From Fidelibacterota bacterium (GTDB lineage Bacteria > Fidelibacterota > Marinisomatia > Marinisomatales > TCS55), in assembly GCA_046861385.1 (NCBI GenBank), contig JBHHTW010000003.1:1-64000 (forward strand): 64,000 nucleotides of DNA. Direction: 5' to 3'. The notes beneath the pieces are model-generated. The model was not told the origin of the DNA. It did no database searches and saw only the letters and a list, made by a program, of their open reading frames with translations. Shown here one piece after another: positions 28,694-48,800 of this stretch. Both the position numbers and the translations under genes were made by a program. The first letter of the stretch is position 1. Every line of letters starts with the position of its first letter.

Positions 28694-29107
28694 TTGGGAA
28701 TCAGCAAGGCGAGTGATTATGCTATATTAATTATGGCTTACTTTTCATCCCAACCCGAGGGAAAAATCAAAAGTAAATCTGCTATTGCTGTCGAGTTATC
28801 ATTACCGGAAGAATATTTGTCAAAAATTTTACAAAAATTAGCCAAAGCAGGTTTTATTATTTCGATTAAAGGAGTGAAGGGTGGGTACCGATTGAAGGAA
28901 TTCCCATGTCGATTAACCTTCCTTGATATTATTGAGTCCATTGACGGGAAAATAAGTATTGTTGGTTGTTTATCGAATGATTCTGACATTTGCAAACGAG
29001 AAAGTCTTTGCTCTTCTCTGATACAAAAAATGGCTATGGTCAATACAGGCATCATGAATGTATTACGCAATGCTACTTTTACCGATATTTCAGTTCCAGT
29101 CTATTAA
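28694..29107 (+). CDS. Rrf2 family transcriptional regulator (3 Cys, TTG start)
   Basis: SKASDYA, YLSKILQKL, KGVKGGYRL; C..C..C; RBS AGGAG. Confidence 0.9.
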   Translation: MGISKASDYAILIMAYFSSQPEGKIKSKSAIAVELSLPEEYLSKILQKLAKAGFIISIKGVKGGYRLKEFPCRLTFLDIIESIDGKISIVGCLSNDSDICKRESLCSSLIQKMAMVNTGIMNVLRNATFTDISVPVY

Positions 29108-29184
29108 ATGAAAAAACAACTAACTATTTCAATCAACCATTGATTGGTGTTTAATGAGTATTAATCCTAACTTGGAGGAAAAAG

Positions 29185-29886
29185 ATGAATAAATCAACAT
29201 TGGTAATGGTGATAACCTTTGGAATGCTTTCACAACTGTTTTCAAGTGAAATAACCGGAAAGATTGTTTTCGAAGGTAAAACACCCAAAATGAAAAAATT
29301 AAGAATTGATGCAGATCCGATCTGTGTTGCTAATAATGAAGTTCCGCCGAGATCTGAATGGCTGATTGTGGATGAAAATGGTGGTATAAAAAATATGATT
29401 GTATCTGTGATTGAAGGGGTTAAGGGATCTTATGACCCTCCGGAGACACCTGCAATTTTAGACCAAAAGGGCTGTGTTTATCAACCACATGTGCTGGCAG
29501 TCATGGTTGGACAGGAAGTGGAAATTCTAAATAATGACGGTCTGATGCATAATATACATGCGTTGCCAAAAAAAAATAAAGAATTCAATAAAGCCATGCC
29601 AAAATTTAAGAAAAAGGTCTTGACTAAATTTGACAAGGTCGAAAAACCTTTCAAAATTAAGTGCGATGTTCATCCATGGATGGGCGCATACATTGGCGTT
29701 TATAATCACCCGTATTTTGCGGTGACAGGGGAGGATGGCACTTATGCCATTTCCGGATTAGATCCGGGTGAATATGTGATTGAAGCCTGGCATGAAAAAC
29801 TGGGAACGCAGACAGCAACGATTACGGTTGGAGACGGTATGACGACGGCAGACTTTACATTTAAAAAACCGTCCAGAAAGAAATAA
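29185..29886 (+). CDS. Exported cupredoxin-motif / carboxypeptidase-regulatory-like domain protein (paralog B)
   Basis: Signal peptide; DQKGCVYQPHV, HNIH, CDVHPWM; RBS GGAGG. Confidence 0.78.
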   Translation: MNKSTLVMVITFGMLSQLFSSEITGKIVFEGKTPKMKKLRIDADPICVANNEVPPRSEWLIVDENGGIKNMIVSVIEGVKGSYDPPETPAILDQKGCVYQPHVLAVMVGQEVEILNNDGLMHNIHALPKKNKEFNKAMPKFKKKVLTKFDKVEKPFKIKCDVHPWMGAYIGVYNHPYFAVTGEDGTYAISGLDPGEYVIEAWHEKLGTQTATITVGDGMTTADFTFKKPSRKK

Positions 29887-29936
29887 ATTTTTATACAATT
29901 ATTGTTTACGAATTAACCATAAAGGAAACCCACTGA

Positions 29937-31661: not shown

Positions 31662-31667
31662 TCATTT

Positions 31668-32264
31668 ATGGAAATTCCTTATACAATTAAAGAAAGACCC
31701 GATACAGGATTAATCAATTCCAAAATTGGAATCTGGTTATTTTTAGCTTCAGAAGTTATGCTTTTTGGTGGTTTATTTTCTGCCTATGTTTTTTTGAGAC
31801 TGGGGGCGGCTGAAGGGGCCTTCCATGAATGGGGACAGGTCTTAAATGTACCCTTGGCCACCTTGAATACATTAATCTTGATTTCCTCCAGCGTCACAAT
31901 GGTCATGGCCTGGGCCTCCTTGAAATTAAATGATTTTAAACAGTATAAATTATATATGGGCTTGACGCTTTTGTGTGCTGCCGCTTTTCTGGTGATCAAA
32001 TATTTTGAATATTCCGCTAAATTTCACCACGGTCTCTACCCGTCTACCAACACTTTTATGGCTATTTATTTTACATTAACTGGGTTACATATGCTCCACA
32101 TTATCGGTGGAATGATTGTTAACGGATATTTTTTCGGGCCCGGATCCAAAATGTGGAAAACAGAGCCGGAACATTTTACAAACAGGATTGAAACAGCAGG
32201 ATTATACTGGCATTTTGTTGATCTGGTATGGATTTTTCTATTCCCTGTTCTTTATTTACTCTAG
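31668..32264 (+). CDS. ctaE: Cytochrome c oxidase subunit III
   Basis: WLFLASEVMLF, TGLHMLHI, YWHFVDLVWIFLF. Confidence 0.93.
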   Translation: MEIPYTIKERPDTGLINSKIGIWLFLASEVMLFGGLFSAYVFLRLGAAEGAFHEWGQVLNVPLATLNTLILISSSVTMVMAWASLKLNDFKQYKLYMGLTLLCAAAFLVIKYFEYSAKFHHGLYPSTNTFMAIYFTLTGLHMLHIIGGMIVNGYFFGPGSKMWKTEPEHFTNRIETAGLYWHFVDLVWIFLFPVLYLL

Positions 32265-32275
32265 GAGTTAGACAT

Positions 32276-32584
32276 ATGAATACAGAAGTAACGGCCTTAG
32301 AAATTAAAAACCACGTAAAGGTCTATATCATGATCTTCGGCCTATTAGCCGTATTAACGCTGGTAACTGTTGGTGCATCCTATCTGAACCTGGAAGCGGG
32401 AGAGACCATTTTTTTGGCCCTGTCTATTGCCACCATTAAGGGATCGCTGGTCGCGGGTTATTTTATGCATTTGATTTCCGAAAAAACCATGATAAAATGG
32501 GTGCTTATGCTAACCATATTTTTCTTTTTACTGCTGATGTTTCTTCCAACCATTTCTGTGATAGATCAGGTGAATTTCCGATGA
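32276..32584 (+). CDS. Cytochrome c oxidase subunit IV family protein
   Basis: LAVLTLVTV, IATIKGSLVAGYFMHL; ATG 32276 with AGGAG RBS. Confidence 0.85.
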   Translation: MNTEVTALEIKNHVKVYIMIFGLLAVLTLVTVGASYLNLEAGETIFLALSIATIKGSLVAGYFMHLISEKTMIKWVLMLTIFFFLLLMFLPTISVIDQVNFR

Positions 32585-32775
32585 TTTCTCTAAAAACATT
32601 TCACCTGTTTTTCATTTCCATGTCATTCATTATTACCATCTGGTTTGCCATTTATATTTTTCAGCAGCCATCCAATGGACTGTCGCCTGCTGTGGGCATT
32701 TTATCATTGGTTTGTGGAATGGGACTGTTGATTTATGGAAAAAATGTCTACAAAAAATTCAAAGGATTATCATGA
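32581..32775 (+). CDS. Small two-TM membrane protein in oxidase operon
   Basis: MISLKTFHLFFI...; ATGA overlaps with both neighbours. Confidence 0.65.
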   Translation: MISLKTFHLFFISMSFIITIWFAIYIFQQPSNGLSPAVGILSLVCGMGLLIYGKNVYKKFKGLS

Positions 32776-32999
32776 AGAAATTATTCACAACCATTATGGT
32801 AATGGCATTATCATCTGAAATGATCTGGGCTTGTGCGACTTGTTTTGGAGATCCGGATGCACCGGCAACCCACGGAATGAATGGAGCCATTATCGCGTTA
32901 TTACTTGTAATCGGAAGCGTGCTGTCTGCTGTGGCAGTAAATATTGTATCTTTTAGAAATAGAGCAAAAATGTATATGAATCAAGAACATAGTCAATGA
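32772..32999 (+). CDS. Small exported CxxC protein with C-terminal TM
   Basis: Signal peptide, WACATCFGDPD, hydrophobic helix; ATGA coupling. Confidence 0.65.
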   Translation: MKKLFTTIMVMALSSEMIWACATCFGDPDAPATHGMNGAIIALLLVIGSVLSAVAVNIVSFRNRAKMYMNQEHSQ

Positions 33000-33013
33000 G
33001 GGATTAAGATTTA

Positions 33014-33844
33014 ATGATTGAAATACTTCGACATGTTGGGTTACCGATCAGCGCATCTACAGATGGAGTAGCCATCGATGAAATTATTGGCTTGGTACAC
33101 TGGCTTATGTTAGTGTTGTTTATTGGATGGGGTCTGTTTTTTATTATTTCCCTTGTAAAATTTCGTGCATCAAAATACACCAAAGCGGATCCGGAAGGCG
33201 TTAGGTCACATATTTCATCTGTGTTAGAAGTCGTTGTAGCCATTATTGAAATGATTATTTTAGTCGGTTTTGCCCTTCCTGTTTGGGCGAATCGTGTGAA
33301 TAATGTGCCAGATTCTGGTGACGATATCGTCCATTTGCGAATTGTGGCCCAGCAGTATGTCTGGAATATCCACTATCCGGGACCGGATGGAAAATTCGGT
33401 GAAACAAGGCCGGAACTAGTCGATGAAATGGAAAATCCTATCGGATTGGATCGTTCATCTGAGTTTGGAAAAGATGATTTTCTCACCATTAATCAACTCC
33501 ATATTCCTGTCCATAAAACGGTAAGAATAGATTTATCAACCAAAGACGTGATTCACAGTTTTTTTCTTCCTGAATTGCGGGTAAAACAGGATGCCATTCC
33601 TGGAATGAATATCCCTGTTCATTTTGAAGCAACGATGACCACAGATAAATTCCTGGATTCCGTGAAGGGAACACCGAGGGAAGGAAAAGGATTCGAAATT
33701 GCCTGTGCTCAATTATGTGGTATGGGACATTATAGAATGAAAGGCTTCTTGACCGTCCACGATCCGGCAGGATATGAAGCGTGGTTGGCTGATCAAGAAG
33801 CATTGTTAAATGAAGAAGATGATTGGGAAGATGATGGTTGGTAG
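33014..33844 (+). CDS. ctaC: Cytochrome c oxidase subunit II (CuA, no fused heme c)
   Basis: Two TMs; QYVW; DVIHSF..KQDAIPG; CAQLCGMGHYRM. Confidence 0.94.
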   Translation: MIEILRHVGLPISASTDGVAIDEIIGLVHWLMLVLFIGWGLFFIISLVKFRASKYTKADPEGVRSHISSVLEVVVAIIEMIILVGFALPVWANRVNNVPDSGDDIVHLRIVAQQYVWNIHYPGPDGKFGETRPELVDEMENPIGLDRSSEFGKDDFLTINQLHIPVHKTVRIDLSTKDVIHSFFLPELRVKQDAIPGMNIPVHFEATMTTDKFLDSVKGTPREGKGFEIACAQLCGMGHYRMKGFLTVHDPAGYEAWLADQEALLNEEDDWEDDGW

Positions 33845-33985
33845 GTGTCATAGTATTCTGTTCAATTATGGTTGATCAATCCTGGTGATAACACTTCATT
33901 TCAAAACGAATGATCAAAATATTGCATTCTAATCCATAACCATTTTTATGTTAACAGAAATATCCTACCTTTATTATCCATCAAA

Positions 33986-34969
33986 ATGATGACTTCCCAT
34001 TGCCATATTTTTCGCTGTTATACCAAATTTGTTGTGGGAATGACTCTTTTTTTGATTTTTGTTGGGGCATTGGTGAAGAGTCACGAAGCCGGACTTTCTG
34101 TGCCGGACTGGCCGACAACCTACGGGTACCAAATGTTTGCCTTTCCCTGGTCCGATATGGTTGGGGGCATTTTTTACGAACACGGTCACCGGATGCTTGC
34201 AACTTTCTTAGGCGCCTTGACTTTAATAATGGCTTTCTGGCTGGGATTAAAAGAAAAGAGAAAGCCGGTGAAACTCTTGGGTTATACCGCTTTGGTCCTG
34301 GTTATTGTCCAGGGACTTCTTGGTGGATTAACCGTTTTGTTTTTTTTACCTGTTTCTATTTCTCTCCTTCACGGTGTGGTGGCTCAAACATTTTTTCTTG
34401 TTGTTATTTTGATTGCTTTTTCCCAATCCAAGGAGTTCCATCAAGGAAAGCGATCTTATCGGGATGGAAGTTATTTTTATATCCTGGCATTGTTAATTGC
34501 TGTTTTTATTCAATTAATTATCGGTGCTTGGATGCGCCATACTGAATCTGGATTGGCCATATATGATTTTCCCAAAATGGCGGGAGCCTGGTTGCCGTTG
34601 TTTAATCATGCGATGTTGAAACATATTAATGACTGGCGTTTTAATATGGACCTGCCCGATGTGACGTTATTTCAGGTAATGATTCACTTTATTCACCGGT
34701 TAGGGGCATTGGTTATTTTCGTACTTACAGTTGTCACTCATTATAAAATGATCCGCTATCTAAACCGATATTCAAGGAGAATTAAAAGGAACCTGTATTT
34801 TTTAGATAGCCTAATTTTGATCCAAATTCTATTAGGCGCTTTTACCATCTGGTCAGCCAAAGGGCCTTTCATTACGAGTTTTCATGTAATGAATGGCGCC
34901 ATGGTCATGGGTGCTTGTTTTTTATTGTTATTAAGATTGTCCGATTTATCATTTTTAAGGGCGACATAA
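33986..34969 (+). CDS. ctaA: Heme A synthase (COX15/CtaA)
   Basis: GLSVPDWP, EHGHR, HFIHR, FHVMNG. Confidence 0.88.
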   Translation: MMTSHCHIFRCYTKFVVGMTLFLIFVGALVKSHEAGLSVPDWPTTYGYQMFAFPWSDMVGGIFYEHGHRMLATFLGALTLIMAFWLGLKEKRKPVKLLGYTALVLVIVQGLLGGLTVLFFLPVSISLLHGVVAQTFFLVVILIAFSQSKEFHQGKRSYRDGSYFYILALLIAVFIQLIIGAWMRHTESGLAIYDFPKMAGAWLPLFNHAMLKHINDWRFNMDLPDVTLFQVMIHFIHRLGALVIFVLTVVTHYKMIRYLNRYSRRIKRNLYFLDSLILIQILLGAFTIWSAKGPFITSFHVMNGAMVMGACFLLLLRLSDLSFLRAT

Positions 34970-34972
34970 ACG

Positions 34973-35851
34973 ATGAAAACCAAACGAATGACAGGAAAAA
35001 ACTTTGCTGCCTATTTTGAATTAATGAAACCCAATATCATGTCTTTGGTATTGGTCACTACCGTATTGGGGTATTACTTAGGTGGAAATGGTATTGATTC
35101 CTGGTCCAGGTTGGCAATGGTCCTTTTCGGGACGGCCTTAACGGCCGGGGGGTCTGGAGCATTAAATCATTATTTGGAAAGAGATTCAGATAAATTAATG
35201 GACCGGACCAAAAATCGACCAATTCCAACGGGGATGATTTTACCGGCTGATGCGTTAATATTCGGTGTAATCCTGGTGGTCTCCGGGACCGTATTCCTCG
35301 CATATAATATTAATTTATTAACGGGGTTTTTGTCAATAATGACATCATTCCTGTATATTTTGGTTTATACGCCATTAAAAAAAATAACCTGGTTGAATAC
35401 TTCAATAGGATCGATTCCAGGGGCCTTGCCGCCTGTAGGAGGCTGGGCAGCGGCTACAGGAGACCTAAGTACTGGTGCATGGATATTATTTGCCATTATG
35501 TTTCTATGGCAACATCCCCATTTCTATGCAATCGCGTGGATATTTAAAGAAGATTATGCCAAAGCTGACTTTAAAATGCTTCCGGTCATAGAGCCGGATG
35601 GAAAAAGAACCGTCAGGCAAATATTCTGGCATTTGATTTTATTAATTCCCATATCTGCTATGCCATATTTTAGCGGCATTTCCGGGGATTTCTATTTGTT
35701 TAGTGTTATTATTTTAACTGGACTCTTTTTTATTTCAGCGATACCCATGTATCGTGAAAAAAACAGAAATAATGCCAGGGCGCTTTTAAAGTCGTCCATT
35801 ATTTATTTACCAATTTTATTAATCTTGATTGTTGTTGATAAAGCTATATGA
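34973..35851 (+). CDS. ctaB: Heme O synthase (protoheme IX farnesyltransferase)
   Basis: MDRTKNRP, YTPLK, PGALPPVGGW, WQHPHF. Confidence 0.95.
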   Translation: MKTKRMTGKNFAAYFELMKPNIMSLVLVTTVLGYYLGGNGIDSWSRLAMVLFGTALTAGGSGALNHYLERDSDKLMDRTKNRPIPTGMILPADALIFGVILVVSGTVFLAYNINLLTGFLSIMTSFLYILVYTPLKKITWLNTSIGSIPGALPPVGGWAAATGDLSTGAWILFAIMFLWQHPHFYAIAWIFKEDYAKADFKMLPVIEPDGKRTVRQIFWHLILLIPISAMPYFSGISGDFYLFSVIILTGLFFISAIPMYREKNRNNARALLKSSIIYLPILLILIVVDKAI

Positions 35852-36423
35852 TTTCTCAACGTAACCGATTCATTATTTATGTGATTGGTGCTATAATAAT
35901 TGCCGGCACGTGGTGGATAAAGACCCCGAAACCATTGCCGATTCTTGGGAGTATACCTTCATTTGACATGATTGATACTAATGGCGGTCCATTTGGATCG
36001 ACGGACTTAAAGGGAAAAATCTGGGTAGCTGATTTTATTTTTACCACCTGTGCCGGTCCATGTCCCGTAATGAGTTCAGAAATGGCTGGAATTCATAAAA
36101 CATTTATCAATGATCCAAATATTCAGACAGTTTCTTATTCAGTTAATCCTGATTATGACACACCGGAAGTTTTGAATGAATATGCCAAACGATTTGATGC
36201 AGACACGGATCAATGGCATTTTCTTCATGCTCCAGAAGAAGATATTCGATCGATCATTATAAATGGATTCAAAATGGGGGACATGGAAGATATTGTATTT
36301 CACAGCACGCGATTTGCATTAGTAGATAAAAATAATAAAATACGCGGTTACTACATCGGCACGGATCACGATGAAGTTAATAAGCTGAAACACGACATAG
36401 TTCAATTAAGCCAATCAAATTAA
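35848..36423 (+). CDS. SCO1/SenC copper chaperone
   Basis: FTTCAGPCP, VNPDYDTPE, FHSTRFALVD. Confidence 0.92.
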   Translation: MISQRNRFIIYVIGAIIIAGTWWIKTPKPLPILGSIPSFDMIDTNGGPFGSTDLKGKIWVADFIFTTCAGPCPVMSSEMAGIHKTFINDPNIQTVSYSVNPDYDTPEVLNEYAKRFDADTDQWHFLHAPEEDIRSIIINGFKMGDMEDIVFHSTRFALVDKNNKIRGYYIGTDHDEVNKLKHDIVQLSQSN

Positions 36424-36426
36424 TAA

Positions 36427-36954
36427 ATGTCTGATTCCATAAAATCAGATAGATTCTGGCTAAATATTATTTATATTGCTTCTACGATTATTACTTTCGC
36501 TGTTGCATTTTTAATCCTGGGGCCAAGACCTGAAGGAATGGAAGGGAGTATAGACGTTTCTTCCTTACCCACCGTTAATGCTGTACTTAATAGTATCACT
36601 TCCATTCTTTTAATTATTGGATTCTTTTTCATCAAACACAAGAAAAAAGAGATTCATAAAAAATTTATGTTAACAGCATTTGGCACCTCATTTGCATTTT
36701 TAGTTTCCTATGTCATCTACCATTGGTTTAAAAGTGGTCCAAAGGTCTACGTGGGAGATTTTTCCTCTGTATATTATATCATTTTATTAACACATATACT
36801 GCTTGCTGTTATCATAATTCCTCTAGCACTGTTAACGTTATATAGAGGTTGGACGACTCAGTTATCCAAACACCGTAAAATAGCGAAAATTACATTTCCC
36901 ATTTGGATGGTTGTGTCCGTTTCCGGCGTGTTAGTATATTATATGTTATATTAA
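36427..36954 (+). CDS. DUF420 (CtaM-like) oxidase assembly membrane protein
   Basis: LPTVNAVLN, HKKFM, FLVSYV.YH, THILLA, HRKIAK.TFPIW..VS. Confidence 0.88.
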   Translation: MSDSIKSDRFWLNIIYIASTIITFAVAFLILGPRPEGMEGSIDVSSLPTVNAVLNSITSILLIIGFFFIKHKKKEIHKKFMLTAFGTSFAFLVSYVIYHWFKSGPKVYVGDFSSVYYIILLTHILLAVIIIPLALLTLYRGWTTQLSKHRKIAKITFPIWMVVSVSGVLVYYMLY

Positions 36955-39900
36955 AGAATTTTTACTAATCCTGCAAAATTGGGATTGGTTTTGAATCCAT
37001 GATGCTGGAAAAATTCCGACGTCATAAATGGAACGGTCACGTAGTGTACTGAATTTTTCTTTAATCGCTGCAAACATTCATTTAGCAGTCTTGCGCCCAA
37101 ACCACTATTATGATATTTTTCGATAAGCGCTATTTTTTCCAAATGAGCTGTTTGGTCATCAATGATTTTCCAATAAATGCCTCCACATTGTTTATTAGCA
37201 GGTGAAAACATCAATAAAAATATATGTTCTTCAGTAAAATTTGCATGAAGATTAAAGGATAATAATAAATCATGAAATAACGCTAATTCTTTTGGTTTAT
37301 GTGGTGGTCGTATAGTAAATAAATTATTTCCTTTATCCTTAATCTTAACGATTAATTCATGTTTATGCATTCCAGAATCATGGAGTATTAATTCGGCATA
37401 GTCTGAAGGTTCTACATGATGATAAATTAATCGAGTCAGGAAATAGGCATCATTCTCAGAACAATTCGAATCAATTATTAATCTCCGTATCATGGATTCG
37501 GCTTCCTCTTGGCTCATGGTGGAGTTAAATAATCCTGATGATAATCTAAGAAGTTCCTTCACAAGGTGAGTTTCATGATTTAGAAAACAGGTTAAAAGAA
37601 AAAATCGAATCCTAATGACCGGGTTTTCTTCGTGCAATTCATGCAATTTATAATCTTTATATAATTCTTGAAGAATTTCACTCTGGGCCTGGATAGTTGC
37701 ATCTTTATTCAAATCCATCCAGCGTTGAAATCGACGAGAAGCAAAAACGACCGGTTTTGGTAAATATCCATACATTGAAACTTTGTCGATGTACTCTTGA
37801 ATGACTTTGGCATTTAACCCATGTATTTCATTATTTCTTAATTCATGACCAATTTTCGTTAATATGGATAACCCATCTGCTGTACCTGATGTTTGCAATA
37901 TGCAGGAAAAAATAACATCCCATTTCACTACATGATTCAATCCTTGAAAACGGTTTTCAGTCGATATAATGAGATTTTCATATAAAGATATTAATGCCTC
38001 TAAAAGAGATTCTACTTTTATTGTCTTGAATGTTCGTATTAATCGCACATGTGTTGCATTGTCAAATTCAGAAACAATCACATTCTTGATAGTGGGATTT
38101 TTAATTGTAAGCTTGTAGTCTGTTTTTGCCATAAAATCTATATATCCCTGCAAGCTGCTCCATCCAAAATGCAGCCAGCGCATATCCCATCTATCACGCA
38201 ACTTTTTGTTATTTATTTCATTCTCCCTACTTTTTAAATACCAATAAACGTCCGAACCACGGTCATACTCAGTAATAATGGTCTTTTGTTCTGGCCAGTA
38301 TGTAATAAAATTATTTAGGAGATTTGTATTTTCAATTCCCGAACTCATTAGTATTTGCCGGTTAGATATATCATCTATTTCTTTCTTGGTAACGTTTGGT
38401 AAATGAGAAATGATAAAATTGTATGCGGATCCGTCCATCAAAGTCAAAAGGGTTCTGTATTGGATACATCCATCTTCACGGCTTAGTTCACTGACCCAAA
38501 TCCCTTCATTATCAATTTCAGAAAGATCAACAATTCTTCCACCTGTAAGAACAAAAATTGTTGAAAAAATGACCGATTGTTTTTGAAATAGATTGAGGAT
38601 GTAAATCTGCTGATCTCTTTTAATTGACGGTTCAAATTGTATTCTTTTTTCCCAGTCTTTCCCGTTGGTTTTTTGTTTTGGCAACATAGTGAAAAATCGC
38701 TCGGACAAAACTTCCATACTCAACTTAATGTGTGGAGATAATTCAGTATTTATCGATGAATGCGTCCAGTTGTTTAATTCATGCCTAATAAAAGAAAAAT
38801 ATTTCGGATGGATTAATGCAATATCAACACATAATTGAAACAGCATCTCTATAAAATGATGAGATGTGGAGTCGGTCGAATTTTGTTTTCTGGCGGAAGT
38901 AAGCTCTAATAAAATTGCTTCTATATGGATATATTTCAGCCTGGTTTTATCTAAATCCCATGTTTTAAGTTTTTTAGCATTACGCAACTTTTCAAATAGG
39001 ATCTTTAAGTTTATTAGAAAAACGGATTCGTCAAGATAGGGGATAATGAAATTAAAGATCTTTTGGGAGAATCTTAAATTCTTGTCGTGAATCATACGCT
39101 CCAGTATAGCAACACCAATTCTTCTAAACTGGTTATCACTGTTATCAAACACTCTATTTATCAATTTCAACCCAGATAGTTTGTGTTCCATCAGTGCTAA
39201 TACTGCATTATTCAACAAGTTCAAGGGTGAGTTAGTATCAGCCATCGGTTGTGCAGGCGATTTAATGGCCATATCAAACACTGATAATTCTTTTGATTTT
39301 TTAAAATGTATTAAATCGAAAACAAGACGCCCGGTAAATTCAATTAATTGTTGATTTCCAATCCACAATCTTGGATCGAGAAGAAGCTCCTCAAGATCTA
39401 TATGATCTTGGTTAACCTTATATATGAAATCTCCTAAATGCAGATGATTTCCTCTCCAAGTACATCTGCATCTTTTATTGATGGATTTTATAATCAAATA
39501 CTGTTTTTTTAAGTGAATACCTTGCGGTATAATTTCTAATTTCTTAAAAAACCAATTTGGAATCGATAGGCGATTCCCATTTATATTCAATTCAGTCTGA
39601 TCACTAGAATATAACTGTTGAATAATATCAGACCATCGATTGAGGATATTTTTCCGCTTATAAGTTCCTTTCTGTGTAAGTTCATCATTTTCAATCGTAA
39701 AATTTCTGGGAATGACAGCAAAATTAATCATGCGTTCATAACTCGATAAAAAACCATTCACAGAGTGGATGAGTGCTCCGATAGAAGATCTGATTTCATC
39801 AGGATTTCTGTCGGGGAAATGAGCGTCTAAATATTTGGGATTTGGGTAGATTAATACAGTATTATAATCCATTCGATCACCGACCAGAAAAGCCGATTCG

Positions 39901-41447
39901 ATTGCATCAAATTCTTTCAGCATATTTTCGATTTTTTGTGGGGTAATTGTTTGTCCGGATGCACTTTTATAGATTTCTTTTTTTCGATCATGTATATAAT
40001 AATGACCATTTTTCTCAGCAAAAATATCACCAGTGTGAAACCAGCCTTTTTTCAATGTTGAAACTAGAGGATCTCCATAGTAATGTTTAGAAATATAAGG
40101 ACCTTTGAGCAAAAGTTCTCCATCGGTGGAAAGACGAAGCTCTATACCAGGTAAAGCAAGCCCAACCGAATCAATATTATAGTCACCTGGAGGAGTCATT
40201 GTAATTCCGCCAGTAGCTTCAGTCATTCCGTACCCGCTCAAAAGATTAATGTCATTTGATTGAAAAAATTGAAAGATATCCGGATCAAGATAGCCAGCAG
40301 CTGATAAACCCCATTTTAAAGAACCGCCTGTTACTTTTTTAACGACATTTTTTATCAAAATATTATCATTTGTATCCGCCGATGTTGTTGACTGTATGGT
40401 ATTATATAATTGAGTCCATCTTCGGGGGACACTAATAAAAACAGAAGGCTTTATGGTTATAAAATTATTCTGCAATGCCTTAAAAGAAGAATCTTGGGCA
40501 AACGTATAAGACGCTCCCCAAAAAATACTGCCTTGCAGTTCAAAAAATCTACCGAATGTGTGATAGAGTGGGAGGTAGCATAAAAAGGAATCTTTTGAAC
40601 CAATTTCAGGTAAAGCCAATGCTCGGGCGAAGCGTTTAATTATAAAATTATTCTGTGTAAATGCAATGCCTTTGGGTTCCCCTGTTGTCCCGGATGTATA
40701 CATAATAGTAGCAATGCTATTTAAATTAACTTGGTTAATCCGTTTTAAAACGAGCATGGGGTCAATTTTTGTATGATTTGATATAAAGGAATCCCAATGA
40801 GACGAATTAAAATTGATTAGGGTTAAGTTTGAAATGGTCGCCTGTAAATATTCATTCCAGTGAATTTGTTTTTCTCCACCAATAAAAATATGGGTTATCC
40901 CGCTCTGATTAATGATGAATTCGATGTCACTATCCGGTGCATTTGCAGGTATAGGAACATTGACAAAATTATATGAAAGACATGCCATATCTAACAAAGC
41001 GCCGTGAAAAGAATTTGGAGTTAATATTCCGACTCGAATAGGTTTATCGGCAGCAGTTTCTTCAAATGTTAATGCTTTGGCAATTGTTAATACTTTATTC
41101 CAGACTTCATCATAAGTGAAAATATTTAATTGTGTTCCATGAAATTCTCTAAAAAGGACGTTGTTTTTATATCGCCGGGTTCGGTTATAAAATAAATGTC
41201 CGAACGAATAATGGGATATTTGAATTAATTCAATCAGTAGGTTGAGCCAGTCTTCAATCCGATTATGCATTACAACCGAAGAGTTCACTTGTGGAAAATG
41301 ACCTAGATCAAGAAAAGTGTGAATGACTCTACGATCAATTTTTCCGGATACTAATTTCCGGCCAATATCAAATAGGTGTTCAATATTTGGAGAGTCGACC
41401 AATGATTCTTGAATCAGATCTTGCATGGATTCCCTTGTTAAGTCCAT
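36951..41447 (-). CDS. Long-chain acyl-CoA synthetase-like adenylation domain fused to a large central region and a C-terminal GNAT acetyltransferase
   Basis: YTSGTTGEPKG, LPLYHTF, GYGMTE, FHTGD, DRKKEI; C-terminal KYHNSGLGARLL..FFQHHGF GNAT motifs. Confidence 0.85.
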   Translation of the reverse strand: MDLTRESMQDLIQESLVDSPNIEHLFDIGRKLVSGKIDRRVIHTFLDLGHFPQVNSSVVMHNRIEDWLNLLIELIQISHYSFGHLFYNRTRRYKNNVLFREFHGTQLNIFTYDEVWNKVLTIAKALTFEETAADKPIRVGILTPNSFHGALLDMACLSYNFVNVPIPANAPDSDIEFIINQSGITHIFIGGEKQIHWNEYLQATISNLTLINFNSSHWDSFISNHTKIDPMLVLKRINQVNLNSIATIMYTSGTTGEPKGIAFTQNNFIIKRFARALALPEIGSKDSFLCYLPLYHTFGRFFELQGSIFWGASYTFAQDSSFKALQNNFITIKPSVFISVPRRWTQLYNTIQSTTSADTNDNILIKNVVKKVTGGSLKWGLSAAGYLDPDIFQFFQSNDINLLSGYGMTEATGGITMTPPGDYNIDSVGLALPGIELRLSTDGELLLKGPYISKHYYGDPLVSTLKKGWFHTGDIFAEKNGHYYIHDRKKEIYKSASGQTITPQKIENMLKEFDAIESAFLVGDRMDYNTVLIYPNPKYLDAHFPDRNPDEIRSSIGALIHSVNGFLSSYERMINFAVIPRNFTIENDELTQKGTYKRKNILNRWSDIIQQLYSSDQTELNINGNRLSIPNWFFKKLEIIPQGIHLKKQYLIIKSINKRCRCTWRGNHLHLGDFIYKVNQDHIDLEELLLDPRLWIGNQQLIEFTGRLVFDLIHFKKSKELSVFDMAIKSPAQPMADTNSPLNLLNNAVLALMEHKLSGLKLINRVFDNSDNQFRRIGVAILERMIHDKNLRFSQKIFNFIIPYLDESVFLINLKILFEKLRNAKKLKTWDLDKTRLKYIHIEAILLELTSARKQNSTDSTSHHFIEMLFQLCVDIALIHPKYFSFIRHELNNWTHSSINTELSPHIKLSMEVLSERFFTMLPKQKTNGKDWEKRIQFEPSIKRDQQIYILNLFQKQSVIFSTIFVLTGGRIVDLSEIDNEGIWVSELSREDGCIQYRTLLTLMDGSAYNFIISHLPNVTKKEIDDISNRQILMSSGIENTNLLNNFITYWPEQKTIITEYDRGSDVYWYLKSRENEINNKKLRDRWDMRWLHFGWSSLQGYIDFMAKTDYKLTIKNPTIKNVIVSEFDNATHVRLIRTFKTIKVESLLEALISLYENLIISTENRFQGLNHVVKWDVIFSCILQTSGTADGLSILTKIGHELRNNEIHGLNAKVIQEYIDKVSMYGYLPKPVVFASRRFQRWMDLNKDATIQAQSEILQELYKDYKLHELHEENPVIRIRFFLLTCFLNHETHLVKELLRLSSGLFNSTMSQEEAESMIRRLIIDSNCSENDAYFLTRLIYHHVEPSDYAELILHDSGMHKHELIVKIKDKGNNLFTIRPPHKPKELALFHDLLLSFNLHANFTEEHIFLLMFSPANKQCGGIYWKIIDDQTAHLEKIALIEKYHNSGLGARLLNECLQRLKKNSVHYVTVPFMTSEFFQHHGFKTNPNFAGLVKIL

Positions 41448-41536: not shown

Positions 41537-42628
41537 TCAGAAGTTTAAACTAAAGGTAATGCGGTTTACTAAACCCAGTAATCCTAAGCTAGAGATAGAA
41601 TAATCCACCCGAAAATTGATCGGGACGAAGGATAATTTTTCAGTATCAATTCCAAAGCCGTACGCCATGTTTGAAACATACCCAAAACCATTGTCACTAT
41701 CGATAGCGTCTTGATATGCAGCGGCATCTGTATCATCGCTTAAGTCATCACTGAATTGCATGAACTTGAATTGCATCCCCGTACGAATATAAAATGCATC
41801 CAGAATTTTTACTTCACCGCCCAGGACATAATAGGGATTGTAATCTCGGGGGTCAAAATATTCCCAGTTCACGGTCACCTCAGCCAATTCCTGTTTTATA
41901 AATCCATTTTTTCCAACTGGTGTCATTGACAACCCAAATCGAAATGCCATGGGTAAAGACCAATCATCTGTATTTAAATGAGCTACAACACTTGGACGCC
42001 CAGGAAACTCTTCATCTTTCACATCCACTTTATTATCTGTTCCATACAAGCGCATCTTTGTTCCAAAATTTGTAACAGCCATACCGATACGAAGTCCATA
42101 AAAATCAGTGACATATTGTGAGCCAGCATCAACGGCAAATGCGGTAGCGGATGAGAATGAAATCGTTTCTTTAATTATTTTTGCTTGCACACCGACTGCA
42201 AAACGGTCACTAATTTTTTTACCATATCCTAATCCAATGGAAAAATCACTAGCGGTAAACGTCCCTTCTCCATCAGTAGCAAATTCTGTCGTTTTTGTCA
42301 TCTCACCCATATCAAAATAAACAAGACTGACACCAAATGACCCAAGTTTTCCAGCCGGAAAAGCCGCAGCTATATAGCTGTGTTTCATATCTGCAATCCA
42401 GTTAAAGTAACTGAATTGAACCTGTGGTGAAGTTAAATGAGCGATTCCGGATGGATTCCAGTATAAGGCGGATGCATCAGCGACTTGGGCTGTATACGCA
42501 CCTCCCATTCCTTCCGCTCGGCTGCCCACTCCAATTTTTAAAAAATTAACAGCAGACGTTCCAACATTATCAAACTGAGCGCTGGCTATTCCAACCAGCA
42601 GGATGGATAGTATAAGTATTTTCTTCAT
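41537..42628 (-). CDS. PorV/PorQ family outer-membrane beta-barrel protein
   Basis: Signal peptide; FLKIGVGSRAEGMGGAY...ALYWNPSG; terminal Phe. Confidence 0.85.
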   Translation of the reverse strand: MKKILILSILLVGIASAQFDNVGTSAVNFLKIGVGSRAEGMGGAYTAQVADASALYWNPSGIAHLTSPQVQFSYFNWIADMKHSYIAAAFPAGKLGSFGVSLVYFDMGEMTKTTEFATDGEGTFTASDFSIGLGYGKKISDRFAVGVQAKIIKETISFSSATAFAVDAGSQYVTDFYGLRIGMAVTNFGTKMRLYGTDNKVDVKDEEFPGRPSVVAHLNTDDWSLPMAFRFGLSMTPVGKNGFIKQELAEVTVNWEYFDPRDYNPYYVLGGEVKILDAFYIRTGMQFKFMQFSDDLSDDTDAAAYQDAIDSDNGFGYVSNMAYGFGIDTEKLSFVPINFRVDYSISSLGLLGLVNRITFSLNF

Positions 42629-45600
42629 TTGATCACCGCGAATTTGCTTATGAATTCTTTTTTAGCTGAAATCACATGAAAGAGATAAACTCCAAACGCG
42701 ATTTCCTGACGATTGTATGTTTGTAAGTCCCACGCTTCAATGCTGGGGCCACGCCAGCCATTACTGTTCTCTTCATGTTTGAGTATTTGTACCAATTCAC
42801 CTGCAGTATTGTATATGCGAATTACACATTTCTCAGGTAAGTTTTGAAATTGTAATTCTCTTTCATATGCAACTGATTCATATGCAGACGTTGATTTATA
42901 TGGATTGGGAACAACCAATATCTCATCAATATCCCCCTGTTCAAGAACGTAATCATCAGCGACTGTCGTAATGGTATATACATCCTCTCCGGGAAGCAAA
43001 GGATTTTGAAAGGAAACTCTGAAAATATTACCCGACTCAAATCGCGTACTGCTTTTATTGAATTTCATCATCCATCCGAATAATCCAGCGTCGGCAGCAT
43101 AATCAAATGAAAACAGGTGTGTAATGTTCGCGTTATAACTTTCGTATATGGGAATGAAAAACACATTTTTTGTGAATTCATAAACACCAGGTCGATCATT
43201 CGTTTCTTCAATAATTGGTTTACTACCGGCAGCTTGGTAGACTAAACAACCGATCTGTTTATTTTCTTCTGTTGACCAAATCGAAAATGGTAACGCTATG
43301 GTATCCACTGTAGTAAGTGTAGAGTTAAAATAGCATGCAATTGAATTTTCACCAAATCTAAAATCCAAATCAAGCTGAAGCTGTGAGAGTTCAGGCCTTC
43401 CTTCGGGTTGATTCACGGGAATATTTTCCAGAAATCCAGCAAACGTTCCGTCCGTTGAACCTGTATAAATACCTCCAAAAACTATGGACGTACTTGTATC
43501 ATTATCCGCAATTGTTTCTAAAGAAGAAAAACTTTGAATATCCCATGCCGCATCTGAAAAAAGCGGAATAAACCCATCAATGACATGAGTCATTATTCCG
43601 GCACTAATATCCGAAGTATCCATTGACACAACCATTTCCATAACATCAGTGTCATAAACAGAGTAGTAGTTTGACTCAATAGTATCAATTGCAGCAAAAC
43701 TGCTATCGCTGGTGACTTCAGTTGTGTCGTACAAAACAGTGTCTCCAAATGTTATCGTATATGTATGACCTTTACTTACGAAATCGTCTGGTGTAATGGG
43801 TAGACCTAGAAATTCCAAGGTGGACGGAACGGCTAAAACAGCCGTTAGTACTGCATCAGATTCTCCGGATGAATGATCTACTGTAAATGACCCCCTATCA
43901 AAACCGGCCGAATTTTTTTGGGGTATAGCAGCAACTGTATTGTCTGAATCGTTGGCATAAGCATTTTTCGACCTCGAATTCTCAAGCGGATCAACAGCAG
44001 AACCTGCCCAGTCATCAGGACCGTCATAGGCTGAAACAGCATACCAATACTCATATCCATTCACAACATTATTATCAACAAATGAATATTGCAGACCCGC
44101 ATCAGATCCTAAGTTATAATAAATCAATGGGTCTGTAATAACGTAGGAACCTGCTATACCGTCAGGCTTGTCATAAATAGCTAAAGGTTTGTATACATCT
44201 GTGGGATCACCGTTAAGATCTGTGACGACAGTTCCCCACATATTCCCACGGTCCATGCTGCGGTATACGCGATACCCCTGGAATGCATTATTCAGTGTAA
44301 CAGGGTCTACGGAATCTTCACTACGATCGTCCCAAAATAGGACAATTTGACCGTCATCTTCGATAACCTGTACAACCGGCGATTCAGGTGGCTTGGGTGT
44401 AGCGCAATCATTATCATACAATGATTGAAATAACTTTGCATTTCTGATTAAATCAGCCTCATTAATTCCCACAAAATCAGCGAACGTAAAAATGACTTGT
44501 TCTCCCGGAGCAACATCAAAAGGGCCTGCATTGATGACCCAAGTAATATCAGGACCGTAAGAATAGGGTTTCTGATAAATATCATTAACATTCGGTGTGA
44601 TATTCTGAGGGGTTTGTATTCCGTGCTGCATCTGCTCAGTATAAGCTTGTGCATCGCTCTGAGAATCTTGACTGTATTCGTACGTGTAAAAATTGGAGAC
44701 ATCATAAGACGAATCAGTTCCATCACTGTTAAATTTAGTACACTCGAGAAATTTCAATCCAATCCAGCCAATACCCGAAGATTTAAATCCTTCAGAAGCA
44801 TCATCCCCATCGTACACTAAAGCAAAATTTGAGAGAAGCTTCGCATCGGTTGTATCTACTAATTTTTCAGCAATAAGTGAATCATTTTTCGGAATAAAAA
44901 GTGCAAAATCATCTGTCCATTCAGCTCCACCTTGTTCAGGTGCATCAGGATCACCGGCAATTCCAACATAGCAGTCTTTAATAGTATCTTTTCCGACGTT
45001 CGTCATCTGTTGTATGAATATGAGACCGTCATTTCCAAATGACAAGGAATAATTCAGTACCCACACATCGAAGCGGACATTTAATGGACCCACACCATTA
45101 TTACTGGCAAATGTGTTTCCTTCTGCAGGATCATTGTCCGTAACCACAAAATACGCCTCCCTTTCTGCTTGGACACCAATACCGCATGGTGCATCGGGAA
45201 AACCATCCGGACCCAATTCCGGTTCGATGCCGGGGAAATAAAGCGTATCCCCGTTTCCCTCAATGTCATAGATAATGGATTCATACGTACCTGTATTATC
45301 AGTTTGCCGAGGCCAAGTTGCAGGCCATGACTCCGGCATATCGCTAAACGCGATTCCAATATTTGCTATCGCATCTACTACGCCTGAATCATATCCCGAT
45401 AACGGCTCAAATTCTTCTTCATTATCCCGGACAGAACCACGAACGCCCACTGCAACAGATGGCTCCCCATTAATGAGACCTCCGACCATGGGTGAGGCTG
45501 TCCAATAATAAGTACAGCAGCCATCTTTGAGCATACTTCCGGCGGGGAATTCATGATTCAATCCCCAACGATCATAACCATATATAGCGGCATTGGATAA

Positions 45601-45804
45601 ACGGAGTGTCAAATTTCCTTTGTCTAACACACTCCGTTTTCTATCGTCATACGAAGAAATTTTTTCTATTCTATCCGGAAGAAGCTTTTTGTCGTATTGT
45701 GGAGCAATCACTCTATTGTAATATTCGATTTTCGAAAGTGTGCTTGCATCGCCACTGTATAATAAGGCGCAACCGAACAAACCAAAAAAAATAATTTTAT
45801 TCAT
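42625..45804 (-). CDS. Large acidic secreted protein with FN3-like region and T9SS-CTD-like C-terminus
   Basis: Signal peptide; FQGYRVYRS...YWYAVSAYD; C-terminal VVPNPY..IRIYNTAGELV..WD...GVYLFHV...KFAVIK. Confidence 0.75.
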   Translation of the reverse strand: MNKIIFFGLFGCALLYSGDASTLSKIEYYNRVIAPQYDKKLLPDRIEKISSYDDRKRSVLDKGNLTLRLSNAAIYGYDRWGLNHEFPAGSMLKDGCCTYYWTASPMVGGLINGEPSVAVGVRGSVRDNEEEFEPLSGYDSGVVDAIANIGIAFSDMPESWPATWPRQTDNTGTYESIIYDIEGNGDTLYFPGIEPELGPDGFPDAPCGIGVQAEREAYFVVTDNDPAEGNTFASNNGVGPLNVRFDVWVLNYSLSFGNDGLIFIQQMTNVGKDTIKDCYVGIAGDPDAPEQGGAEWTDDFALFIPKNDSLIAEKLVDTTDAKLLSNFALVYDGDDASEGFKSSGIGWIGLKFLECTKFNSDGTDSSYDVSNFYTYEYSQDSQSDAQAYTEQMQHGIQTPQNITPNVNDIYQKPYSYGPDITWVINAGPFDVAPGEQVIFTFADFVGINEADLIRNAKLFQSLYDNDCATPKPPESPVVQVIEDDGQIVLFWDDRSEDSVDPVTLNNAFQGYRVYRSMDRGNMWGTVVTDLNGDPTDVYKPLAIYDKPDGIAGSYVITDPLIYYNLGSDAGLQYSFVDNNVVNGYEYWYAVSAYDGPDDWAGSAVDPLENSRSKNAYANDSDNTVAAIPQKNSAGFDRGSFTVDHSSGESDAVLTAVLAVPSTLEFLGLPITPDDFVSKGHTYTITFGDTVLYDTTEVTSDSSFAAIDTIESNYYSVYDTDVMEMVVSMDTSDISAGIMTHVIDGFIPLFSDAAWDIQSFSSLETIADNDTSTSIVFGGIYTGSTDGTFAGFLENIPVNQPEGRPELSQLQLDLDFRFGENSIACYFNSTLTTVDTIALPFSIWSTEENKQIGCLVYQAAGSKPIIEETNDRPGVYEFTKNVFFIPIYESYNANITHLFSFDYAADAGLFGWMMKFNKSSTRFESGNIFRVSFQNPLLPGEDVYTITTVADDYVLEQGDIDEILVVPNPYKSTSAYESVAYERELQFQNLPEKCVIRIYNTAGELVQILKHEENSNGWRGPSIEAWDLQTYNRQEIAFGVYLFHVISAKKEFISKFAVIK

Positions 45805-45806
45805 TA

Positions 45807-48800
45807 TTACCTCAATCCTACATTGATTCCAAATTCAATATGCCGCGGTGCACTGTAATAATAAGGTCGATTTACCCACATAGGTGAATTATTGGGGTTC
45901 AAACTTTCATCAGGTTTACCGGTGTCATTAAATACATTTAATATATTTTGACGATCAAATAAATTTGTCACGTCTGCATAAAATCGTACATTTGCAACAT
46001 TACCAATTTTCATATCGTAATATGCCTTGGCATCAAACGTTGATGTGAAAGGCATGCGGCCGGAGTTTTCATCATCAATATTCCTTCCACGAGAATCAGT
46101 TGGGGTATATGGCAACCCACTTCCCATATTTCCCAATACATTTACGCCAAAACCCTTTGGATGCTGAAAGTCTAAGCGCATGTTGAGGGTATGGGGTTGA
46201 TCCCAAGCCATCGTAATTGTCCTGTGAACTGGGTGATCTCCATAAACAGATGCGTAGTATGCAGCCCAATAGTCTGATTCTTCATTTCCTGTATTTCCTT
46301 CAGATCGGGAGAACGAGTAAAATATTTCCCAGCTGAAGTTTTGGGTCATTAACTTCCGCAAACCCAGTTCAAATCCTTTCGAGTTAGCGTAATCCATATT
46401 TTCAAAAATGGCATATTCTGTGGGATCTGCATCATATATATTGGCTGATATATAATCATGACGATCGTTGTAAAATAGAGTTAATGTTAACAAGAATTCC
46501 GGATTTACAAGTGTTCTCAAGCCAAATTCATACTGAACCGCACGCTCCGGTTTAATGTTGGGAGAACCAACAGGAGGGATGTACCAATCGCCCAAATTAA
46601 ACGGGAATGGATACATGGAATTTCCAAACATCCCAAATAGTGTTTGAGAACTGACGTTTGATAATCCACCGGGAACACCTTCATTTCCAATGCCATTCGA
46701 GTTGGAGTAGTCATACATATATTCATAGTCAGGGTACTTGAAAAAGTGACCATAGGAAAAATGAAATGCAGTATTTTCTGTTACAGGATATCCAATCCCT
46801 ATTCTCGGACTCCATTGTGTTTTTACGGTTGCTTTATCCGGTCGGCCAAATGAACCGTCTTCTTCGATATATCCCCATTCCACATCGCCGGCAGCAAAGG
46901 CATCAAAGTCAATGGATGTTAAATCACTCGTTTCATAGACTTCACCGTTGTAACGATATCCTAGATTTTTTGTGGGATCTGCATATTCACTTTTGGGATC
47001 AAGGACATCATAACGTATTCCAAGGTTGATGATAAGGTCATCGAACTCCATTTTATCTCGAATATAAAAAGATGCCTCGATAGGTTCTTTTTCCCATAGG
47101 ATAAATGATGCATCTGAACTTCTTCCGTAATACCCACCGCCAACTGAGTACGCCGAAAAATTAAATAATGAGTGCTTCTTTTGTGTATAACCCGTTTTGA
47201 TTTGATGCACTTTATTGAACTGCCAAGTCAATGCACTTTCGTATTGAATCGTTTCTGAATAATCATTAAAATAATTATGGTATGTTGAGAAACCCATCCT
47301 CACCGTATCTCCAAAATTATTTACGATCGGATAACTTCCGTAAAATTCATAGTTGGATGTATTGTCATAAGCATCTCCTTCACGAAGATTTGTAAATACT
47401 CCCCAACTGTAGGTATTATCATTATTTAAATCACTATATTCATCAACTCCAACCGTATAAGCGCCATCCTCATCTACGTCATTATATGGTTCAGCGTAAT
47501 AACTGAGCCAGGTAAACTCAGATCCAGGTTCAAATATTGAGTTCTCCCAGTCATCCGGGATGATGTAAATATCAGAAAAAAGTTCATGGTTATTATCTAA
47601 GAATTTTTCACCTGGAATTTTAGGTCCCCTCCAATTCTCGACTCTGTTCTTTGAATAAGAAAAGGTTGCAAACATATTTTCAGAAAACGCTATATTTAGT
47701 TTTCCGTACATGAGTTTGCTTTCCTGCCAGTCGACGGCGTTACGTTCCGGAAGTTGTCGATAACTCATACTGAAACCCCGTTTTTCATTATTCTGAATAT
47801 TGGTTCCCAGGATGATTTTAAGGTTATCCAACGGACGCAATACGACTTTTCCCATGATCCTATCCGTCCAATCATAAGTGGCTGTAATTTCGTGGGCTCC
47901 TTTTTTTAATAAATCAGCTTTTCCATCACCATTAATATCAGATAAAGCATACACATCTCCATTACGGATTCCATCTCCATTTTCATCAGTGAATTCTTCA
48001 CCCTCATCATAAACATTATTGGCAACATCAACCCATGATTCTGCAGCTGAAATTAAAGTTCCTGATGTGTCATAGACGGCATGATCCCACATGCCATTAT
48101 TATTGTTATCTGTGTATGTTTCACCGAAATCATATTGGTTATTTGCAACATCAATCCAAGCTTCACCAGTATCATATACGCCATCATCATCTTCATCCAC
48201 TTTTAAAACATCCCATGGGAGATAATTATTTTTCAATCGTCCATCCGTTCGGTTTCGGTCCGCAGAAATAAAAAATGTTACCAGATTTGGCATAGCAGGA
48301 ATGATGGGTCCGCTGGCGGTTCCTTCAATTCTGCCTGTATTCCAATTATTGCGATCTCCAAATTGATCAGTGGAAGCTCGAAAACTCAAATCATATTCTG
48401 CGCTCCCTTCCCGTGTAATGATATTAACAATACCACTCATGGCCTGTCCGTATTCAGCATCGAATGATCCGGTAATAATCGACAATTCGGAAATGCCTCC
48501 TCGGGCAACATCTGTAGCCATACCACCGTTAATGATATCTTTAACGTAAAAACCATCTACCAAGTAGGCAGTTTCACCGGAACGCCCGCCACGGATATGA
48601 ATACCATCGTCCCCGCCACCGTTATCATTTTCAATTACACCGGCAACATTATCAATAATGTCCGTATAGGAATTGATGGGCATATTTTCAAAATCTTCTT
48701 CTTCAATGGTTGTTGTAGTAGCTGTTTGATCTCGGACAATAACCGGGCGTTCAGCTTCTACGATCACCTCTTCACCTTCCACAGCAGATATTTCCAGGGA

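Follow-up and report, generated by a model that had tools for sequence, protein, structure and literature searches.

A bacterial fusion of an adenylating domain, a pseudokinase and a GNAT domain as a possible citrate-reading lysine acyltransferase

What does a bacterium do with a single polypeptide that carries an acyl-adenylating domain at one end and a GNAT acyltransferase domain at the other? The question is raised by a gene on contig JBHHTW010000003.1 of a Fidelibacterota bacterium (assembly GCA_046861385.1), whose positions 1 to 64,000, 64 kb in all, are called the window below. The gene lies at 36951-41447 on the minus strand, encodes 1498 residues in a single uninterrupted open reading frame, is present in one copy in its genome and has about the same GC content as the remainder of the window. 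An earlier note on this DNA described the product as a fusion of adenylating, kinase-like and GNAT parts, and Pfam, structural models and relatives all bear this out. The protein belongs to a real, uncharacterised family, a putative kind of regulated acyltransferase with a new architecture. The function that we favour, tentatively and somewhat short of calling it probable, is that of a citrate-reading lysine acyltransferase at the entry of the Krebs (tricarboxylic acid, TCA) cycle, whose substrate, donor and target we infer from the data set out below.

The concern raised in the earlier note that the fusion might be unique to this assembly, and hence artefactual, can be set aside: the reading frame is intact and the same fusion occurs in hundreds of other assemblies, which rules out an assembly artefact. 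With residues 620-1498 as query, 23 proteins including the query itself, nearly all of about 1500 residues, were recovered from 7993 scored candidates, and the same query retrieved 268 clusters at 50% identity. A genome scan found at least 590 relatives. The closest ones are labelled Candidatus Marinimicrobia, and 80 relatives among the matches listed come from Marinimicrobia, KSB1, Calditrichota, Ignavibacteria, Holophagae/Thermoanaerobaculia, Phycisphaerae, Gemmatimonadales and Anaeromyxobacteraceae. Strong matches (expectation value E<1e-100) are found in 65 of 201 genomes of the organism's own phylum, at one locus each, the sole exception being a gene split across two contigs; none was found in the 1-Mb genomes of this set. 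Samples of four other groups contained 10/151, 12/121, 10/151 and 24/101 carriers. Both the AMP-binding and the GNAT domains are kept in all 31 full-length relatives scanned with Pfam (drawn from 150 listed, from several phyla). As for natural split or stand-alone forms, most of the best 120 of 2792 shorter matches either carry the label partial or come from short contigs, and a few on long contigs resemble frameshifts; split forms may still exist. At five loci (L058, L078, L039, L055 and L074) the gene is in two pieces, probably through sequencing frameshifts or gaps. No description of the family was found in the Creative Commons-licensed PMC and bioRxiv literature, searched by titles and abstract openings, with supplements outside the search.

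Pfam places AMP-binding at residues 106-457 (E 4e-50), AMP-binding_C_3 at 496-615 and, with three different models, GNAT at 1383-1487, each above its curated cut-off, and gives no convincing match between AMP-binding_C_3 and GNAT. The stretch of about 750 residues that the earlier note had left unassigned does lack a Pfam assignment, but a model of residues 615-1498, made with 70 sequences (predicted local distance difference test, pLDDT, 92; predicted template modelling score, pTM, 0.85), resolves it into four parts. On the minus strand, a family-specific N-terminal extension with conserved L46 and W67 (residues 1-85, 41193-41447) is followed by an adenylation core of the ANL superfamily, recognised by Pfam and by its motifs (86-490, 39978-41192), and by the adenylation C-subdomain (491-615, 39603-39977). 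Then come the four parts seen in the model: a beta-rich linker domain with conserved P630, W632, G672, Y676, W695 and N698 (616-735, 39243-39602), a helical HEAT/armadillo-like solenoid (736-925, 38673-39242), a bilobed alpha/beta domain of kinase-like fold without the catalytic residues (926-1230, 37758-38672) and a helical bundle in which A1236, R1239, W1243, Y1266, R1279 and T1286 are strongly conserved (1231-1345, 37413-37757). The chain ends with the GNAT domain (1346-1498, 36954-37412), identified by Pfam, structure and profiles; the earlier note had put it rightly at the C-terminus, but at about 120 residues, whereas the module spans about 150 with its beta-hairpin lead-in. Besides the model, the solenoid has weak profile matches to armadillo repeats (E 1e-4) and AP-2 alpha, and Pfam detects HEAT weakly in two relatives; a protein atlas search with residues 612-925 gave no usable match. 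Pfam gives no PP-binding match at E<=1 that would indicate a carrier domain, and the domain after the adenylation part is beta-rich in the model. A predicted complex of the adenylation domain with the helical bundle and GNAT scored 0.01, which weighs neither way.

The argument for a carboxylate ligand starts with the adenylation domain. The window protein has an intact P-loop (TSGTTGEPKG), A4 (LPLYHTFGR), A5 (SGYGMTE), A7 (TGD) and A8 hinge (DRKK), and the ANL motifs A3 (the P-loop), A5, A7, the A8 hinge and the A10 lysine are kept in 86-87 of 87 full-length sequences. K593, within ELTQKG, is kept in 231/232 full-length sequences and is likely the A10 catalytic lysine. Over long distances this domain is the best conserved part of the protein, with a mean top-residue frequency of 0.53-0.57 against 0.35-0.43. 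The solved structures nearest to it are those of carboxylic acid reductases (the closest, E 2e-28) and luciferases. The helix after the P-loop reads KRFAR, and K271, R272 and R275 (40623-40637, minus strand) are invariant in all 232 full-length sequences, as are H296, G299, E303, G413 and G414. The KR-x-x-R pattern recurs in every one of the 104 shorter matches that include the P-loop and is absent from the other adenylating enzymes of the same genome (4/4 that could be aligned). It aligns with the luciferase segment carrying Arg218, which lies close to the active site and may be in contact with a luciferin oxygen (PMC7555964, in excerpt). By this alignment, K271, R272 and R275 would lie at the far end, or floor, of the acyl pocket. 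Together with the invariant glycines at 299, 413 and 414, they point to a roomy pocket whose floor is cationic, better suited to a di- or tricarboxylate than to a fatty chain.

The earlier note had called the N-terminal 610 residues or so FadD-like and had thought of fatty-acid sensing or lipid N-acylation. An adenylating domain with intact motifs is indeed present, but it scores far below the cut-offs for fatty-acyl-CoA ligases: the best NCBIfam scores are 163 bits against a cut-off of 950 and 157 against 476, and each of the 25 matches listed stays below its own cut-off. A long-chain fatty acyl-CoA ligase whose GNAT domain fatty-acylates lipids or proteins, or senses fatty acids, would agree with the nearest named families, which are fatty-acyl-CoA ligases and carboxylic acid reductases of the same ANL subgroup (AMP-binding_C_3), with the glycine-rich pocket and with the beta-oxidation genes that adjoin at a few KSB1-type loci (L057, L066, L134-L136). 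We give it very little credence, in view of the low scores, of the invariant lysine and arginines at the putative pocket floor, of the three ordinary fatty-acyl-type ligases that the genome already has, and of neighbouring genes that belong to citrate and the oxidative branch of the TCA cycle more often than to lipid metabolism. The protein also differs from fatty acyl-CoA ligases and carboxylic acid reductases in having the KR-x-x-R helix and neither carrier nor reductase domain. The fatty-acid and lipid part of the earlier proposal is thus weak, while its general logic, activation coupled to a GNAT domain in a one-chain machine or regulated acyltransferase, holds.

The second line of evidence is gene neighbourhood, surveyed at 140 genome loci and 80 metagenome loci, some of them redundant. 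There is no fixed operon around the fusion gene across these loci. Nevertheless, citrate synthase, homocitrate synthase, aconitase or isocitrate dehydrogenase (IDH) is present at 61 of the 220, and after clustering (60% identity, at least 8 kb of flank) the same link is seen in 16/65 clusters, where a chance rate of about 2.5% was assumed for comparison. Only response regulators/kinases are commoner as a neighbour family than citrate synthase (14/86 clusters). In a midpoint-rooted FastTree phylogeny of the 139 representatives left after collapsing at 75% identity and removing short rows, the loci with TCA neighbours appear in about eight separate clades, in both main subfamilies. The neighbours are not orthologous: they include eukaryote-type citrate synthase, citrate synthase II, the PRK14032 citrate synthase and homocitrate synthase. 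Their arrangement differs as well. Citrate synthase lies upstream on the same strand in Ignavibacteria, divergently at L139 and L141, and convergently in Acidobacteriota and in the sister clade of the window gene, within the same phylum. Citrate synthase II accompanies an IDH-family gene at L135 and L137, and aconitase B is the neighbour at L143; in the L193 group, the fusion gene stands between aconitase plus citrate synthase on one side and, downstream on the same strand, NADP-IDH on the other. The 80 metagenome loci have aconitase in 14, IDH in 12 and citrate synthase in 7. Other carboxylate genes adjoin in single lineages: fumarase, GDH, phosphoenolpyruvate (PEP) carboxykinase, a methylaspartase cluster, dicarboxylate transporters and acetyl-CoA hydrolase/transferase. 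At L221, L225, L238 and L239, a GntR regulator and a glutamate mutase/methylaspartate ammonia-lyase cluster lie divergently to the fusion gene, and PEP carboxykinase is downstream at two of the four.

Gene content follows the same trend. Eukaryote-type citrate synthase occurs in 64/65 carriers versus 41/136 non-carriers of the own phylum, in 10/10 versus 42/141 in the G203 phylum and in 19/24 versus 28/77 in the G205 phylum. In genomes G146, G163 and G177, this enzyme is encoded in frames of about 570 residues instead of 430, which suggests a fused extra domain; these three genomes have no strong match to the fusion family. Homocitrate synthase is found directly before or after the fusion gene in all ten carriers of the G201 phylum and at L212. 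Among 151 genomes of the G201 phylum, homocitrate synthase scores over its cut-off in exactly those ten carriers, directly downstream each time. The five tested have dapB, a marker of the diaminopimelate route, no LysX over the cut-off, and another citrate synthase elsewhere; their homocitrate is therefore not for lysine. This homocitrate synthase without LysX (L106-L114; G224, G335, G339, G343) is of the LysS type, and could stand in for NifV in the genomes of the phylum that bear nifD; G224 has no second match at homocitrate-synthase level.

The two-gene cassette of the G201 phylum would also suit an enzyme of small-molecule metabolism, making N-acyl amides such as a citryl- or homocitryl-amine chelator or cofactor from the acid supplied by the neighbouring synthase. 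The absence of LysX beside dapB and a GNAT fold equally close to small-molecule acetyltransferases speak for this idea. We consider it a long shot all the same, since genes for amine supply, export or uptake do not recur beside the fusion gene, the context is single-copy and housekeeping-like in most lineages, and a pseudokinase with a HEAT scaffold better fits a protein partner.

The adjacency to synthases invites another explanation, in which the protein is a CoA ligase of metabolism, AMP-forming and specific for citrate (or a dicarboxylate), and a citrate-synthase-type partner cleaves or hydrolyses the citryl-CoA; the GNAT domain would only acetylate K593 of its own chain at high acetyl-CoA, much as Acs is acetylated in trans by Pat. 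(Homo)citryl-CoA is a bound intermediate of both synthase folds, and the repeated adjacency, the superior conservation of the adenylation domain and the near-invariance of K593 are all as expected of such a ligase. However, each turn would cost two phosphoanhydride bonds, a tail of 880 residues is large for self-regulation, and neither citryl-CoA lyase nor ATP-citrate lyase was found among the annotated neighbours (the latter was looked for in 100 of 175 candidates scanned with Pfam and in the recurring clusters). An AMP-forming citryl-CoA synthetase is not described in the titles and abstract openings of the literature found. On balance, we judge the explanation unlikely.

The nature of the reaction depends on the GNAT domain, which the earlier note feared might be degenerate. 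It is not: the ratio of non-synonymous to synonymous substitution rates (dN/dS) is 0.02-0.14, indicating purifying selection and often the lowest value of all parts of the protein (7 of 13 pairs, those in which dS could be estimated). With a profile of 68 GNAT sequences, Tetrahymena Gcn5 comes first (E 9e-11, the next family at 2.5e-7), and it is again best with a profile of 44 GC-rich members (E 2e-9), which rules out base composition as the cause of the match. The domain shares with Gcn5 the F-x3-H-x2-L motif and the GG before beta4, and has HNSGLG as its coenzyme A (CoA) loop in the window protein.

A Gcn5-like domain joined to an acyl-activating enzyme might transfer the very acyl group that is activated. 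The fusion protein would then be a one-chain machine that makes citryl-CoA, or another polycarboxylyl-CoA, and puts the same acyl on protein lysines. The constancy of the fusion (31/31 relatives scanned), the intact adenylation motifs, including the A8 hinge, and the closeness of the GNAT sequence to Gcn5 are in keeping with this, and there is a precedent with lactate, in which the AMP-forming ligase ACSS2 feeds KAT2A (PMC12553170, in excerpt). On the other hand, the beta4-beta5 region of the GNAT domain has no invariant basic residue to hold a tricarboxylate acyl, its few invariants look structural, and the words citrylation and lysine were not found together in the Creative Commons-licensed PMC/bioRxiv literature. 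We regard direct transfer as rather improbable. It is equally doubtful, in our estimate, that there is an enzymatic lysine citrylation (homocitrate in some lineages), scaffolded by a pseudokinase and spread over at least seven phyla; if true, this would be a new post-translational mark by which the first product of the TCA cycle is fed back onto TCA enzymes.

Between the two catalytic ends lies the kinase-like domain. The motifs quoted in the earlier note are located at residues 982-1137 (window ~38500-38035), as it claimed, and its guess of a kinase-like fold without canonical catalytic residues proved sound. A model of residues 920-1345 (pLDDT 93.5) was compared with known structures, and all 50 of the best matches are kinase-like chains: Bud32 first (4ww5; Z 12.1, root-mean-square deviation, rmsd, 3.9, 215 aligned), then Rio1 (Z 11.2) and small-molecule kinases (Z 10-11). 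Foldseek ranks PRPK first with the same residues (E 7e-5) and finds PI3-kinases and GRK2 with the 615-1498 model (E from 1e-5). Of 225 distinct full-length sequences, in which kinase positions were assigned through alignment and secondary structure, 5 have the beta3 lysine, 72 have the catalytic-loop aspartate and none has all three catalytic residues; serine occupies the DFG position in 186/225, and the catalytic-loop asparagine (N1122) is kept in 182/225. The window protein has S1014, N1117 and R1138 in place of the beta3 lysine, the catalytic aspartate and the DFG aspartate. Selection on the domain is purifying, with dN/dS of 0.07-0.18 (7 of 13 pairs gave an estimate), and a family-specific D1129 is kept in 213/225; taken together, this suggests a structural or allosteric role. 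One subfamily retains the glycine loop, the alphaC glutamate and an EEYIPG hinge, all lost from the window protein, so that nucleotide binding is possible there. A protein atlas search with residues 920-1230 returned unnamed clusters and DUF6206 (21-46% of members), a lead only. AceK is a kinase-fold protein tied to the control of isocitrate dehydrogenase, and the fusion gene of one clade, directly upstream of an E. coli-type NADP-IDH, recalls it in setting. A relationship, suggested by a motif, found no support: Pfam AceK_kinase has no match in the window organism's genome (E<=0.001, with a positive E. coli control), and a profile search agrees. AceK is missing from the 50 best structural matches of residues 920-1345, a short list compatible with either outcome. 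Unlike AceK, moreover, the family has lost its kinase residues and would act by acylation instead of phosphorylation. The fusion protein is, then, no active kinase, no nonribosomal peptide synthetase or carboxylic acid reductase and, by Pfam, no AceK.

We come back to the citrate-reading lysine acyltransferase. A TCA polycarboxylate is proposed as its ligand because the chemistry of the pocket and the gene linkage to unrelated citrate-type synthases converge. The adenylation domain would bind ATP and a polycarboxylic acid, most likely citrate, by means of K271, R272 and R275; homocitrate may take its place where homocitrate synthase is the neighbour. An acyl-adenylate, then probably a CoA thioester, would be formed. 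The large swing typical of adenylating enzymes would be relayed through the beta linker, the HEAT-like helices and the pseudokinase, which together would act as a scaffold and possibly, in the glycine-loop lineages, as a nucleotide-binding relay. The Gcn5-like GNAT domain would in turn acylate lysines of IDH, citrate synthase and aconitase, and perhaps also K593 of its own chain; the group transferred would most likely be acetyl, with acetyl-CoA as the donor. A CobB-family sirtuin encoded on the same contig (window 5033-5743) would reverse the acylation. Acetylation has been reported to alter the activity of citrate synthase and IDH (PMC11254643, in excerpt). In type III GNATs, gating is exerted by metabolite-binding domains fused to the enzyme (PMC11254643 and PMC8556138, in excerpts).

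Several observations weigh against this reading. The pocket was mapped by sequence alignment. Its residues are identical beside citrate and homocitrate synthases; therefore the substrate may be a smaller shared acid, such as 2-oxoglutarate, succinate or malate. If the adenylation domain were purely a sensor, its catalytic motifs would have no need to be fully intact. On the GNAT side, human and yeast Gcn5 match weakly (E ~0.005), the position of the Gcn5 catalytic glutamate (H1435) is held by histidine in 124, tyrosine in 48 and glutamine in 18 of 225 sequences (an acid is found at 1437, E1437 in the window protein, in 215/225), and small-molecule GNATs score as well by structure, with Z 15.8 for YhbS (rmsd 1.9, 131 aligned), 14.5 for NAGS and 14.0 for Gcn5. 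As for gene context, 49/65 clusters are without a TCA neighbour; the window's own clade has no adjacent TCA gene, and the single citrate synthase of the genome is on contig C92. Eukaryote-type citrate synthase is common without the fusion gene (the 41/136 non-carriers above), and nifD is present in 4/5 of the G201-phylum genomes tested, so that their homocitrate synthase could serve nitrogenase instead. Finally, the counts overstate independence, since kin share gene order and gene content.

Comparison with known acyltransferases shows what is familiar in this architecture and what is not. Pat of Salmonella, PatZ/YfiQ of E. coli and PatA of S. lividans are likewise multidomain chains that join a domain derived from an acyl-CoA synthetase to a GNAT domain. 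In type I and II Pat enzymes, the synthetase-like part is of the NDP-forming kind, is catalytically inactive, and reads a metabolic signal (PMC8556138, in excerpt). Here, by contrast, the domain is an unrelated AMP-forming one with intact motifs and Pfam finds no NDP-forming domain, a pseudokinase and a helical scaffold are added, and the GNAT sequence is nearer to Gcn5. The proposed gating of a C-terminal GNAT by an N-terminal ligand module is that of the type III enzymes, the cAMP-, ACT- or NADP-gated Pat/Kat proteins, whose regulatory part is a cAMP, ACT or NADP effector domain of 300-400 residues (PMC8556138 and PMC11254643, in excerpts). Unlike them, the fusion protein has 1345 residues before its GNAT module, none of their Pfam domains and, judging from its motifs, an adenylating enzyme that is active, and a TCA acid would be its effector. 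With Gcn5/PCAF (KAT2), the best solved sequence match of the GNAT domain, it shares the two motifs mentioned, but it is a bacterial single chain with no bromodomain and no histones to act on, and its catalytic glutamate is replaced by histidine with an acid two residues on.

The immediate surroundings of the gene in the window deserve a short description. Its stop codon overlaps that of a convergent DUF420 gene by four bases (TTAA, 36951-36954). In its own clade, the convergent neighbours are cytochrome-oxidase assembly genes, and the divergent ones are a GAF-HD gene and a DASS transporter. A functional link to the assembly genes was rejected: the adjacency is frequent only in this clade of the phylum, plus L067, L210 and L233, and is treated as inherited gene order. 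The DASS/SLC13-type anion transporter (50943-52745, plus strand) lies 9.5 kb from the fusion gene here and is a close divergent neighbour in 32 related loci; it is a possible carboxylate link. What separates the two in the window is a minus-strand cluster at 41537-49097, encoding a PorV-family barrel, a 1059-residue protein whose tail is a weak type IX sorting signal, and a TonB-dependent receptor; in most relatives the GAF-HD/DASS pair adjoins directly, and the cluster looks like an insertion in one sub-lineage. An operon with this upstream cluster was likewise rejected, the two being adjacent in only nine loci and the cluster absent in close relatives. A promoter scan gave chance-level results (5 versus 3.3). 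On the other side, 26606-36954 holds two Rrf2-type regulators, two paralogous proteins of 233-235 residues and a complete operon for cytochrome oxidase and its assembly, preceded at 23561-26596 by a multiheme cytochrome c of 1011 residues whose N-terminus is a long coiled coil. The contig also carries a thiolase/acyl-CoA dehydrogenase pair (11670-13999) and an ordinary acyl-CoA ligase (59310-61070).

Control of the citrate/isocitrate node in bacteria is known from a few model groups, as phosphorylation by AceK and acetylation by Pat-type enzymes. The fusion family is a different candidate device for controlling this node, and it is present in abundant marine Marinimicrobia as well as in KSB1, Calditrichota, Ignavibacteria, Acidobacteriota, Planctomycetota and Anaeromyxobacteraceae. 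The genera of carriers include some with cultured members (Ignavibacterium, Caldithrix, Anaeromyxobacteraceae). If the proposed reading is true, what the family would add is an enzyme that adenylates a TCA polycarboxylate, an acyltransferase of Gcn5-like type in bacteria and a new family of pseudokinases.

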